This document shows positions 2,733-53,846 of a DNA stretch of 64,000 nt, piece by piece. Where the stretch lies: NCBI GenBank assembly GCA_951406725.2, contig OX597822.1:50158001-50222000 (forward strand), written 5' to 3'. The notes beneath the pieces are model-generated. The model saw nothing but the letters and a program-made list of their open reading frames with translations. It was not told where the DNA came from and did not search any database. The position numbers and the translations under genes were made by a program. Every line of letters begins with the position of its first letter. The stretch's first letter is position 1. The DNA comes from Octopus vulgaris. Lineage: Eukaryota.

Positions 2733-2763
2733 CGTGAAGTATATTTGCTACTGAATTGTGGCT

Positions 2764-3014
2764 AACCCTTTAGGGTAGATGCTACTGTAGCTTGTAGCCC
2801 GAGGAAGACACCTCCTCCAGTTGGCTATTGACATACTTTCTGTGCCCTATGAGTATTTGGAAAGAGAAGCCATCCTTCCCATCTTCAATCTGACATGATA
2901 CACACGAACTCGAGTGTGTCAATACTCATAGGGCCCAGAAAGTGTGTCAATAGCCAGCTGGAGGAGGTGTCCTCTTGGGGCTACACGCTACAGTAGCATC
3001 CACCCTTAAGGGTT
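2764..3014. repeat. Inverted repeat (arms 2764-2857 and 2921-3014) between TA tracts; extra partial direct copy at 2643-2684
   Basis: aaccctttagggtagatgctactgtag...ccctatgagtatt is reverse-complementary to aatactcataggg...ctacagtagcatccacccttaagggtt, with a few mismatches. Confidence 0.9.
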
Positions 3015-3046
3015 GTGCAGCTACTGTTTATACCTCGCTCAGAGGT

Positions 3047-3158
3047 GTATATATATATATATATATATATATATGTATGTGTGTGTGTGTGTGTGTGTGT
3101 GTGTGTGTGTGTGTGTGTGTGTGTGTGTGTGTGTGTGTGTGTGTGTGCGTGTGTGTAT
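3047..3158. repeat. (TA)n(TG)n compound microsatellite
   Basis: Direct reading. Confidence 0.95.
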
Positions 3159-5679
3159 AAAGTTTGTAATGGTTACATTACTCTTCTAGTGGTTTTCCGA
3201 TTGTCGATGTCAATCAGTTAATGTGTAAGATAGAACCTGAAACATTGTATCTATGCTGTAGTATTGATTTAAACTTTACAAAGGAACCTGCGGCCTTCTT
3301 TCTTCTATCGCTTTGATTTTTAACATAAGAACCATTAAAGTAGGGGAAATTTTAACTAAACGTTACATTCAGGAAATAAAGTGTTTCGCTACACAGCTGC
3401 TTGGAGCAAATTATCAAAGACATAGTTACGCATTTGAAATCCTAATAATTGTTGTCAATTGTACAACTGACAAATGTTTATTCTGCTGCTGGCTTAAAAC
3501 CATTTGGCAAGTAAGCGAGAATTAGCGTTCATGTAGCAGAAGAAATTATCGTTTGTTTTCATTTGTTTGATTCATACTACCCATGTTGAGGTCAATGAAT
3601 ATGTTATCGTGATTAGCATTGCCAGTATTGTTGACTGTAGAAGCTTGCAAATAATTCAACATATTACTTTGTAATCGATTAATTTATGTGTTATTTTTTA
3701 ACCCCATGTTGGCTGCGGGTGACTCAACAAAGGATGAAAATTGTTTCAACCGTAACAAACTTGCCATTTTATTTAAGGACAGTGTATATTACACGAATAT
3801 GTATAGTACTACCTTTTTAAGGTACAGTTTTATGGGACCTAGGTTGATAATTGTTGTAGCTCAAAGGACGACATAGAAAATACTCCCGTTATCTTTATTA
3901 AAATACAGAACATACTTGTATTGTTATGTGTGCGCACATGTGTGTGTGCGTGATGTAGTAATAACCTTGCTAGGGTTTTAGAAAGAAGGAAATCATTAGA
4001 ACAATATGATTTCAGCAGAGAGTATATGTAGTATTTTCAGAGAAATATTGTTTTGCAATCACTTTGGTTGATTAATAAGATGAGCGCTACATCGCTGTAA
4101 AAATTACTCCAAGTAAATAAAAGCATATCTGCATCATTTGATATTTCTCGGAGGTGGTATAATCACGTGAAGTTGTACAGACACACTTAGTAACTCTTTT
4201 AGACTATGATTTTCATTTTAATTAATTACAAATTATTATACGTACCAAATCGTCTATAGAAATCTGATGAAGGAATAAGTTTTTAATGCAGATTGCACCC
4301 TTGAAAAAGTATTTATTTCCATTTATTTCAGTGAATATTTTCCAAATACTAAATAATTCCTATTGGTCATTCTTTTACTTTGGCGGTGATTGAATGGGAT
4401 TTGTTTATTAAATAGTTCCAAGCAGATCGATAAAATATTTAATATTTAAAAATTTACCGTAGCTGTCAAAGACGAAAACTATTCTGGCTTCATATACGAA
4501 TCTAAGTTTTGCCAATAAAAAAGATCTTGGATTTGATTAACGGTAATGACTTTAACTCTCATTAGCGTTATACTTTGAATTAATTAAGAATAATTTATGA
4601 TTCACCATCATAATTACGATAATCTCTATTTAACGTTACGGTTTTCTTGTAGAAGACTCCACAGAGAAAGGTTCCAAGGACATCATATGAATTTGCCAAA
4701 ACAGGAATACGCTTTAGATAAAAAGGTACCTGTACACATTGTCAATACTTGCCAGCCATTGACAATCAACACATTACCAGTGGTTGAAACTATGACGATC
4801 AAATATCAGACATTTGTTATATAACAAAATATTTAATTTAATTTTTAATTGAAATTTCAGGATGCTTTTTTTCAATTTTCTTCTTCTGGGACTAATTTTT
4901 ATTAATGCTAATGGACATATCTCATTAGTTCTATAAATTTAATTACAAATTATTTTGAGTTCACTTACACGAGGATGGTAGCGAAAATAGGCACAACTGT
5001 TTTCACACGACGTACTTCAAATTATTCCACTAAACACGATAGTCCAATAAATACAGATTCTCAACGATCTCAACGACTTCCACGACATCTCAACGGCTCT
5101 TACCACTATTCTCACGTCTCAACTACAAGCGAAAGTTCCTACAAAGGACGGAAAGAGGATCAGAGAAACTACACCAAATCCCTTGTTTTATTATCTCCAT
5201 TTATCCTTTAGTATTTTCCCTCCTAAATCAGAATGGCTGAAGCTTTGATGATATTCATTTCTTGTCGATCACTACTAACACTAATGAGCTTTGTATATTC
5301 AAAACAATGGATGCACAATTTTAATATAAATTGACTGTTATGCACATTTAAACTTATCAGCATCGAAAACTCTGAACTTGATTTTCTAATTCACAATTCT
5401 AAATTCGTCTGTTATGAACATTTTAATTTCTCAACATTTAAACTTTTAAAGATGTCTTTCTAATTCATAATTTTATATTTTTACCATAGATAAACAAAAA
5501 ACATTGTTGAAATTAGTTTGCTATATATGTAAATAAATAAATTTTAAAACAATTACAAGTTTTTCAAATTTAGGTGCATTTTCAACAACAACAACAATAT
5601 ATATATATATATATATATATATATATATATATATATATATATATATATATATATGGCGGGGGTTGTGCGTGTCTTAAAG

Positions 5680-5840
5680 CCAGTGTTGGAGTGTTTAAGG
5701 ACCCATGAGTTACCAGTTCGGTAAAAATAGAGTGAGGCCACGCTTAAAAAATGTACCGGGGTCACTTCATTCGACCTAAAAGTTTTCAAGACGGTGCCTA
5801 AACATAACCACAGTTTGATGACTGAAACTAATGAAACGTA
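5680..5840 (+). mobile_element. Old 3' fragment of the SINE family seen at 22941-23354
   Basis: ccggggtcacttcattcgacctaaaa...gacggtgcc...tgactgaaac resembles the 3' half of that SINE. Confidence 0.55.
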
Positions 5841-52089: not shown

Positions 52090-53230
52090 AGATGTGTTAC
52101 TTATCCCAGGGTCACAATAATTTAAAGTATAAACTTGAACTTGTAATCTGAATAGAGTAACTGTAGATTTCTCTATAGTTCAGCGTACGTTTTCTCTTTT
52201 GCACTGATCTTCAGCTTTATATTAACATCCGCTGGGCAGCTAATTTCCACAACTGTACACAGGTGTGTTGTGCTTACATTTTACTGAGGACTTCACTGGG
52301 ACATTCCACCAGTACTCCTTTCTATTATGACTGGCTATGGTTTCTACCATACTGTGCGTTGTTAATTCTTTGTCGTCGAGGTTATCCTTCCGACAGATTT
52401 CATTATAGAGTGTCCAAGATACAACATCATGTTTCATAGGCAGATAATACCTGATGACATTTTCAGACTACTGTTTATGATGTGAGTGATATCTTCGAGG
52501 TTCACTCCACAAAGTCTGCATTGATTGTCACATTTTACTAGTTTTCCTACATAACTATGCCTTTCGTGCATCAGGTATTTGGTTGATATTTCCTGTTCCT
52601 GGATTGCAAACGCATACACTTCAATAGACTGCTTTGATGATCAATGTTACTATCATCTCGTAGCTTTCTACTAACATATCCACTCATATATTCTGCTCAT
52701 ATTCATTCATATTTTCTGCTCATATAGGATCATCCTTTCATCTAATGATACTTTGCGGTACAGTCGTGCAAATTTTTGGGCATGTATTCTATGTTATCAG
52801 GCAAAGAAAGCACTGCCTTCCAAATTTTATGATGTCATCAGCCTTATGTATGCAATCTTGGTCAAGAGAAGCACTTCAACACCTGTTGGTTAAAAGACGT
52901 TGCCGAAGGAATATGATGCGACATTCAAAGGCATTTCGGATCGATCTTAAGCTTCTGCCGACTTGTTTTCATTTTAGGTAGAGGCATTCTACGTCATTGT
53001 TTATGTGGAAATTGTGTATGCTTGCTAGAATTTTTCAGGTTTTCACATCAATGGCTCGCGTCTCTTCATGCGTCTAATCAAGCAGCCGAAATGTTGGTAT
53101 GAGTACTGGTACTGCCAAAATATTGTGGGCCACTGTTTTATTGAATGCAGAGAGTTCTGAGGCCTAAATTTTCTTTATTCAGCTGTTATGTTAATTTGTT
53201 AAAGGTGACGTTGTAAGATATGTTTTTATC
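52090..53230 (-). mobile_element. Older R4/Dong-like LINE remnant with CCHC knuckle and RLE domain
   Basis: SELSAFNKTVAHNILAVPVL...IDVKT*KIL...FHINND; FAIQEQEISTKYL...CRLCG..LEDITHI; HDVV; VEISCPADVNI. Confidence 0.75.
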
Positions 53231-53414
53231 CACTCCTAGATACCTGTAACATTCCTCGTCAGATATGCAGAAATGTTGCTGATCTGGTTTATAGTTTTCC
53301 CCTTTTCACAACAATTCAACGGCATATATCCGGAGCAAACACCAACACTATATCCTTTGAGAATGGTCGAGGATATTTTCCATATCATGCATATGCTTTC
53401 CATAAAGTTATATA

Positions 53415-53635
53415 TGTGTATGTATGTATGTATGTATGTATGTATGTATGTATGTATGCATGTATGCATGTATGTATGTATGTATGTATGTATGTATGTA
53501 TGTATGTATGTATGTATGTATGTATGTATGCATGTATCTATCTATCTATCTATCTATCTATCTAGCTATCTATCTATCTATCTATCTATCTATCTATCTA
53601 TCTATCCATCTATCTATCTATCTATATATATATAT
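53415..53635. repeat. (TATG)n(TATC)n microsatellite
   Basis: Direct reading. Confidence 0.95.
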
Positions 53636-53649
53636 ATTTTTTTTTCTTC

Positions 53650-53846
53650 AAAATGTGACCTCGTGTGTACCGTTGACGATTTTTTTCCCTCTGTCTTCCC
53701 TTCTCTGGATCTTTCCTTCTCCTATGTTTCCGACGATGAGCTCCGCTCGAAACGTTTCTTTATTTCCTGAGCGTCCAATAATACTATATTTGTTCCACGT
53801 CCTCGCGTTGTTGTGTTTTTTTGTGCTTTCTTGTTTGGATTAACTT
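53650..53846 (+). mobile_element. ~200-bp hammerhead-bearing mini-element between TA tracts (motif at 53726-53756)
   Basis: gttt-CCGACGA-t-gagc-tcc-gctc-GAAA-cg-TT, then tttcctgagcg; the 3' arm of stem I appears deleted. Confidence 0.6.

Follow-up and report, generated by a model that had tools for sequence, protein, structure and literature searches.

The twelve modules described here lie in a 64,000-nt stretch of the Octopus vulgaris genome (contig OX597822.1, positions 50,158,001 to 50,222,000; hereafter the window) and are named M1 to M12 in positional order. A sequence-only reading had singled them out as short stretches between (TA)n runs and proposed a new system of ribozyme retroelements. 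Our data show that the modules are real, repeated elements lying in TA runs. Most of them are probably short 3' ends, truncated on the 5' side and often duplicated in inverted orientation, from several families of endonuclease-positive (EN+) Penelope-like elements (PLEs) that insert into (TA)n, a reading to which we assign a probability of about 0.75. It draws on the TA flanks, the fold-backs with their one-sided tails, the partial tandem of M10, the high depth of the families and the PLE coding remnants nearby; in M9 and M10, moreover, the hammerhead motif precedes a 3' end of the same type. The structures are observed, and the enzymology is taken from known PLE biology. The claim that elements sit in TA runs beside PLE remnants stands: the elements are repeated, have PLE-type anatomy and adjoin PLE coding remnants.

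The available text of Craig et al. 2021 (PMC8557442) reports a (TA)n preference in 26 of 27 listed Hydra families, including Hydra-1_Obim of Octopus bimaculoides, and tabulates type I hammerheads for Hydra families, that of Hydra-1_Obim about 100 nt from the 3' end. Octopus Naiads likewise prefer (TA)n, Neptune shows a microsatellite bias, and non-autonomous Chlamys elements are mentioned. A PLE insert is described there as a partial tandem truncated on its 5' side, next to which lies an inverted truncated copy, with a tail of 30-40 bp that often stands at one end. Since the (TA)n targeting of hammerhead-bearing PLEs is already in print there, the modules do not make up a new system. They are unnamed families of a known element kind with known behaviour.

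In the mechanism we propose, a GIY-YIG endonuclease would nick a TA run, and reverse transcription would begin at the RNA 3' end and mostly halt after 100-500 nt. A second priming event or a template switch may then give an inverted or tandem copy, resolution would strip the tail from one end, and a split TA run would be left on both sides of the insert. Because each insertion would leave two TA runs, later elements might pile into the same spot and build chains such as the one at 34653-37497. A minority of the modules (M10 and M11/M12) may be dedicated non-coding units, possibly mobilised in trans.

Anatomy, kinship and abundance of the modules

Five of the twelve modules (M1, M3, M6, M7 and M10) have a fold-back stronger than that of every same-length control window (272-298 windows). 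The weak fold-backs of M5 and M8 fall in the top 1-2% of the control windows, that of M8 under its own shuffle maximum, and against the same controls there is no fold-back in M2, M4, M9, M11 or M12. The claim that most modules carry a fold-back and/or a hammerhead core motif is borne out in 10 of 12. M3 (19341-19658) is a near-perfect fold-back whose 107-nt arms are 98% alike and meet across a 1-nt loop, and M6 (24992-25318), which has no hammerhead, has arms of about 100 nt that are 96% alike. One-sided tails are present in three of the seven fold-backs examined: 103 nt on the left arm only of M3, 101 nt in M10 and 87 nt on the right arm only of M6. These tails, together with the 96-98% alike arms of M3, M6 and M10, match the PLE pattern in the available text of PMC8557442. 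The PLE trait of a partial tandem or an inverted truncated copy is seen in the direct repeats of M10 and in the five strong fold-backs.

TA-repeat-targeting miniature inverted-repeat transposable elements (MITEs) exist, for example Micron of rice, and the fold-back modules might be such MITEs or fold-back DNA transposons with no relation to PLEs. M1 (2733-3047) comes closest to this description, having roughly symmetric 94-nt arms (2764-2857 and 2921-3014, 90% alike) and no hammerhead, and M7 and M8 have inverted ends without a complete hammerhead. M7 (25356-25740) consists of 52-nt arms, 87% alike, plus 208 nt, and shows no hammerhead. A MITE is expected to be symmetric, but M3, M6 and M10 carry 87-103 nt on one side only, and symmetric terminal inverted repeats that end at the target were not found, M3, M6, M7 and M10 all being asymmetric. 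The 1-nt loop between the arms of M3 and the direct repeats and hammerhead motif of M10 also speak against MITEs. Even in M1, 31 and 33 nt remain unpaired outside the arms, so that these end short of the TA runs. In M8 (34687-34924) a left part from an abundant family is followed on the right by a decayed inverted arm. Other M8 copies, in contigs of the four runs compared with positions 34000-37600 (X2, X5, X7 and X8), continue with different letters beyond 34830. The second arm of M8 is therefore not a terminal repeat of the family, since the other copies diverge where it begins. A MITE origin of the fold-back modules is thus very unlikely in our view. M1 itself is either a PLE pair or a MITE, with no family assigned, and a further piece of its family lies at 2644-2684.

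The modules had been described as several unrelated families, which does not hold for three pairs. M4 (23376-23778, minus strand) and the left half of M5 (23926-24446) are one family (z 79), with a shared 3' end and a differing 5' extent, M4 being longer on the inferred 5' side. M4 has neither fold-back nor hammerhead. M5 is a composite of this family (23926-24180, minus strand) and another piece (24181-24446) that contains a 20-bp hairpin; a half hammerhead core lies at 24041. M11 (37282-37483, minus strand), a family member about 200 nt long, is related to M12 (53640-53846, plus strand; z 10-13), which is a diverged relative with similar ends. M2 (17060-17308, minus strand) and M9 (35079-35422, plus strand) share 3' ends (z 5-7). 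Together with M3 and M10 we call them clan A, in which one 7-mer, picked after the fact, stands at a similar distance from the AT-rich end. Five of its 11 matches in the window fall in M2, M3, M9 and M10 (twice), all on the inferred sense strand and some 30-65 nt before the 3' end. The clan has one consistent direction, since the hammerheads of M9 and M10 set it. M2, in which neither fold-back nor hammerhead is found, is likely the 3' end of a clan A element, with that end at the left TA run, and M9 starts 1 nt ahead of its hammerhead stem I.

Abundance was estimated from the contigs of the four runs as summed depth over single-copy depth, and is used as an order of magnitude only because contig depth is not copy number. 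M8, M9, M10 and M11 are genome-wide repeats in 4/4 runs, at roughly 10^2-10^4x single-copy depth. The family part of M8 reaches about 2,200-5,600x, M9 about 140-1,800x and M10 180-4,900x overall. In all four runs the depth of M10 rises to the inferred 3' end, from 184-770x in the body to 445-1,906x in the hammerhead bin and 640-4,947x in the tail bin. M11 stands at 19,000-38,000x in three of the four runs and at 54,000-118,000x in X8, and exact patterns of its family have no match in viral, metagenome and prokaryote collections. A TA-abutting segment of about 200 nt at 36299-36518 is similarly abundant (15,000-46,000x). A single X2 contig joins M10 (37028) to M9 (35173), which hints at recombination or kinship between both families. 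At 34000-34576, single-copy contigs from four differently labelled organisms match at least 99%, and the organisms of the four runs are therefore very close relatives.

M10 (36574-37241, plus strand) begins with the inverted 101-nt tail (36575-36675) and continues with direct repeat 1 (36672-36762), the tail (36763-36863), a body with stops in all six frames and no open reading frame (ORF; 36864-37150) and direct repeat 2 (37151-37241). The 91-nt repeats are 479 nt apart. Given this order and period, the right end lacks exactly the 101-nt tail that is inverted at the left. M10 can thus be described as a non-coding unit of 479 nt with a terminal redundancy of 91 nt. This would suit an alternative in which most modules are dedicated units, either non-autonomous mini-PLEs or monomers of retrozymes, that are copied from short and perhaps circular RNAs and moved in trans. 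A 162-nt contig at about 30x in X5 and 46x in X8 spans the tail-to-body junction of M10 (36835-36993), and its depth suggests that the junction is common to many copies. However, it has 29 letters on the tail side, under the 31-letter bridge rule, and the X2 and X7 records begin at 36859 and 36857 without crossing the junction. M11 and M12 are diverged, yet they keep similar 5' and 3' ends, and the depth of M11 is nearly flat along the element. Counter to the alternative, the 5' extent differs between M4 and M5, the right arm of M8 is not common to other copies, and codons are retained in the TA-flanked piece at 38380-38893.

The comparison with retrozymes points the same two ways. Non-autonomous derivatives of PLEs are already known, and retrozymes have been published as such (Cervera and De la Pena 2020, PMC7229834; Li, Clavereau and Pollet 2026, bioRxiv 10.64898/2026.07.22.740005). 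According to the available text of these sources, non-LTR retrozymes are short non-coding type I hammerhead units related to the pseudo-long terminal repeats (pLTRs) of PLEs, and dispersed monomers occur; M10 would correspond to 1.2 such units with an inverted tail added. Its 479-nt unit nevertheless exceeds the quoted 170-400 nt. The retrozyme definition requires a tandem array of two hammerheads, which is found in 0/12 modules, and none of the twelve holds two full units. For most modules, an origin as dedicated units is unlikely. Non-autonomy, which the sequence-only reading had extended to the modules in general, is hinted at for M10 and M11/M12; for the other modules, autonomous PLEs truncated at the 5' end are an equally good explanation.

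A joint reading goes further and is, in our estimation, unlikely. In it, M10, as a 479-nt unit, and M11/M12, at about 200 nt and on the order of 10^4 copies, would be non-coding mini-PLEs that hitch-hike on the enzymes of TA-targeting PLEs. Their insertions would split and partly duplicate TA runs, breed their own targets and become a main source of the TA microsatellites of the genome, and the one-sided tail that M3 and M10 have in common (101-103 nt) would be the sign of a fixed site for second cleavage or priming. The literature searched, with most subscription papers and Repbase/Dfam outside it, nowhere describes cephalopod mini-PLEs that are non-autonomous and target TA. A 2026 repeat annotation of Octopus vulgaris reports 31 recently active Penelope-like families and, in its available part, does not discuss their targets; the available part of PMC12602865 likewise holds nothing on targeting.

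TA runs around the modules

The window has a GC content of 34% and many microsatellites; TA runs of 12 nt or longer account for 2.6% of its length. All twelve modules lie at the positions originally given for them. Placement between (TA)n on both sides is confirmed for 11 of them, in which each end directly adjoins a TA run 12 nt or more in length. M7 (25338-25740) departs from this, its right flank being (CA)n and the nearest TA lying 37 nt beyond. Some TA flanks are as short as 12-18 nt (M4 on both sides, M6, M9 and M11 on the right, M12 on the left). The modules were selected for their TA flanks in the first place. We compared gaps between TA clusters with a uniform placement of the clusters within the window. 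For runs of at least 12 nt, 18 gaps of 180-720 nt were observed against 11.3 expected (P 0.006); the figures are 15 against 8.7 for runs of at least 16 nt (P 0.004) and 10 against 6.0 for runs of at least 20 nt (P 0.04). The excess (1.6-1.7x) is real, but modest. Ends within 50 nt of a TA run were counted in the window for 6/14 PLE-like remnant ends and 2/28 ends of other repeats, against a background of 7%, a comparison that lends weak support because the ends were placed by eye and most labels of the control repeats are tentative.

The TA runs could also have arisen independently through slippage, or the elements may have written them as 3' tails; the modules would then be ordinary repeats between close runs. 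That the excess of gaps stays below twofold, that many TA runs sit in compound microsatellites or within SINE-like repeats (SINE, short interspersed nuclear element), and that M2, M4 and M7 show little besides their TA flanks would all suit this explanation. The fold-backs that outdo all control windows in five modules are at odds with it. In addition, among six elements with inferred direction the longer TA run is on the 5' side in three and on the 3' side in three, which fits poorly with a synthesised 3' TA tail. We consider this explanation very unlikely. For Litopenaeus vannamei, an SSR-rich (simple sequence repeat) invertebrate, it has been proposed that a recent Penelope expansion is linked to long (AT)n (Yuan et al. 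2021, PMC7878876). The (AT)n there lies inside the elements according to the available text, whereas in the octopus window TA flanks them, and flanking rather than internal TA fits targeting.

Within 34000-37600, which covers 4/12 modules, the contigs of X2, X5, X7 and X8 end at TA runs. Among 15 of the 106 joints listed for this stretch and these runs, there is no joint that skips a whole module, as an empty site would. Two diverged copies of another family, at 35435-35700 and 17379-17520, each stand directly after a TA run (z 12-21); the sequence-only reading does not list them.

Hammerhead motifs and PLE coding remnants

The window was scanned for hammerheads with our own relaxed type I descriptor, ad hoc scoring and a cut-off score of at least 18. 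It gave five matches, compared with a mean of 0.25 in eight shuffled windows. M9 contains an intact type I hammerhead (35080-35137, plus strand) with 5 bp each in stems I and II, a palindromic stem III and a predicted cut after 35132, and the start of the element (35079-35085) lies upstream of that cut. A second intact type I core lies outside the modules at 34251-34166 (minus strand), in a low-copy element that ends near the TA run at 34653; its stem III resembles those listed for Hydra PLEs. The type I motif of M10 (37042-37100, plus strand) has U4 changed to C in the window copy. The remaining matches, at 24747 and 28552, are doubtful. M11 has a decayed minimal hammerhead (37415-37378, minus strand; score 16.4) in which A6 is changed, and M12 a core-like motif without stem I, judged by eye (53730-53756). 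M5 and M8 keep the first half of the core only, that of M8 at 34816 (minus strand), within about 14 nt of the end of its family part. No trace was found by the descriptor search in M1-M4, M6 and M7. Across the twelve modules, one motif is intact, one has a single core change, two are decayed, two are half cores and six modules have none, which does not sustain their description as ribozyme retroelements.

The hammerheads are likely the known pLTR motif, which has decayed in most of the copies here. Cervera and De la Pena 2014 attributed dispersed single hammerheads to truncated PLEs. The palindromic stem III, the extra base before stem II (M11, M12) and opposite-strand pairs 100-700 bp apart agree with the available text of that work, whereas the intact core is confined to M9 and the 34251 motif, and the U4C change seen in M10 has no counterpart among the variants given in the text available. 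Minimal PLE hammerheads have been reported, in the text available, to be weak and dimer-dependent. Among the matches listed by Rfam there is no hammerhead; these are microsatellite-driven miRNA models below threshold. Two other candidates were rejected. The core-like motif at 41658 lies within a repeat related to 5727-5836 and lacks the stems, and at 36299-36518 we call no hammerhead because the core is absent despite a stem III-like palindrome.

PLE coding remnants were sought with a profile built from full-length reverse transcriptase (RT) and GIY-YIG proteins, for which the reversed control was empty. Two remnants are strongly supported. The first (16292-17017, minus strand; E 1e-17) comprises the RT thumb, a decayed Cys linker and GIY-YIG, and its truncated 5' end abuts the TA run beside M2. 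It keeps CxxC, with the first Cys position changed, where its best relatives have the full CX2-5CxxC motif, and appears to be Neptune-type, the clade being suggested by the linker motif alone. The second (17617-18283, plus strand) contains GIY-YIG, with a profile match at 17743-18245 (E 2e-16). The two are 66% alike and inverted around M2. In the segment 16202-18283 these Neptune-type remnants face each other head to head, with M2 and another TA-abutting element between them; the segment is possibly one old inverted insertion whose centre was invaded later. An ORF for RT and GIY-YIG is present in these two neighbouring remnants and absent from the twelve modules.

A weak GIY-YIG remnant (30487-30630, minus strand; E 3e-4 to 0.02) lies away from TA. 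The others were recognised by eye: a possible thumb, linker and GIY remnant (21092-21711, plus strand; profile E 0.45, absent in other profile searches), a possible thumb remnant without a profile match (58659-58814, minus strand), within a 1.1-kb segment between TA-containing arrays, and a Hydra-like remnant (60940-63060, plus strand) with the RT end, EN and 3' untranslated region (UTR), compared with the published Hydra alignment. The Hydra traits of this last one (60940-62400: CxCX5C linker, partly lost, no CCHH, DKT motif) were also judged by eye; profile and protein searches gave no support for it, and its peptide has no relative in metagenomes. A partially tandem SINE-like repeat interrupts it at 61867-62304, with a perfect 14-nt target duplication (61867-61880 and 62291-62304). 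The seventh, absent from the sequence-only reading, is a TA-flanked 3' end with the last codons and the 3' UTR (38380-38893, minus strand), homologous to the 3'-terminal part of the Hydra-like remnant (z 6.3). Judging from this homology, it would be the one direct case of a module-like piece that is a truncated PLE end. The count of at least seven PLE remnants in the window is thus upheld by profile for two strong cases and one weak one, the other four being calls by eye. Word-index protein searches with two window remnants gave no match, and Pfam showed no PLE domain in 150 of 361 stop-free stretches nor in 9 further stretches of the window.

Among the known systems closest to the modules are PLEs of the Hydra clade. 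According to the available text, these elements have a (TA)n preference, a type I hammerhead about 100-200 nt from the 3' end, a near-palindromic stem III and 5'-truncated inverted copies (Penelope-13_HM comment), and the window holds the Hydra-like coding remnant. In contrast, the distance from the hammerhead to the inferred 3' end is about 290 nt in M9 and 240 nt in M10, the modules have no attached ORF, and the 3' end of Hydra-1_Obim, in the text available, matches no module by eye. Neptune and Naiad PLEs, as described in the same available text, have a microsatellite bias, partial tandems and inverted truncated copies, and two Neptune-type remnants flank M2; no module, however, could be connected to an ORF of either clade. 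Canonical hammerheads are missing from Naiads, some of which retain half cores as M5 and M8 do.

Several points weigh against the origin of most modules as truncated PLE ends. No module (0/12) matched a named PLE or a coding region of the window, four of the seven remnants fail all profile searches, and the PLE link of the modules rests on anatomy and on the one extra element at 38380-38893. Half of the modules (6/12) are without a hammerhead trace, and none of six folded motifs, that of M9 included, adopts the full hammerhead as minimum-energy monomer fold. The tails of 87-103 nt exceed the 30-40 bp in the available text of PMC8557442, including for the Hydra clade. Given the observed and expected counts, some half of the TA gaps of 180-720 nt would be expected by chance. 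Finally, the depths are not copy numbers, that of M11 is nearly flat along the element, and that of M9 runs without a steady rise to the 3' end (348, 957 and 605x in X2).

If most modules are PLE ends, the conspicuous TA texture of this genome would be explained by a known process, and abundant PLE-derived families are flagged that repeat libraries may class as unknown, SINE or MITE. The young insertions M3, M6 and M10, with arms 96-98% alike and a constant one-sided tail, are good material on how PLEs build their tandem and inverted ends, a matter that the available text of PMC8557442 names as unresolved. If filled sites prove to have more TA than empty ones, they would give a direct test of retroelement-driven microsatellite growth.

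Other repeats of the window

A Pif1 helicase 2B domain is encoded at 33381-33884 (Pfam E 1e-11), and a second degenerate stretch lies at 39500-40500; both are presumably Helitron remnants. Degenerate RT remnants of the LINE type (long interspersed nuclear element), with weak RVT_1 and zf-RVT matches, are located at 47030-48345, 48880-49215, 52110-53400 and 57050-57430. The first of them ends in an (ATT)n array, and in all four the ends lie more than 50 nt away from any TA run. The window contains no tRNA gene. Further pyrimidine- or AT-rich segments that abut TA and resemble the 3' UTRs of elements of this kind are found at 19681-20420, 24553-24830, 43033-43660 and 59980-60841. A further degenerate repeat, with internal TA runs and both direct and inverted copies, occupies 45320-45780 and 45937-46122.

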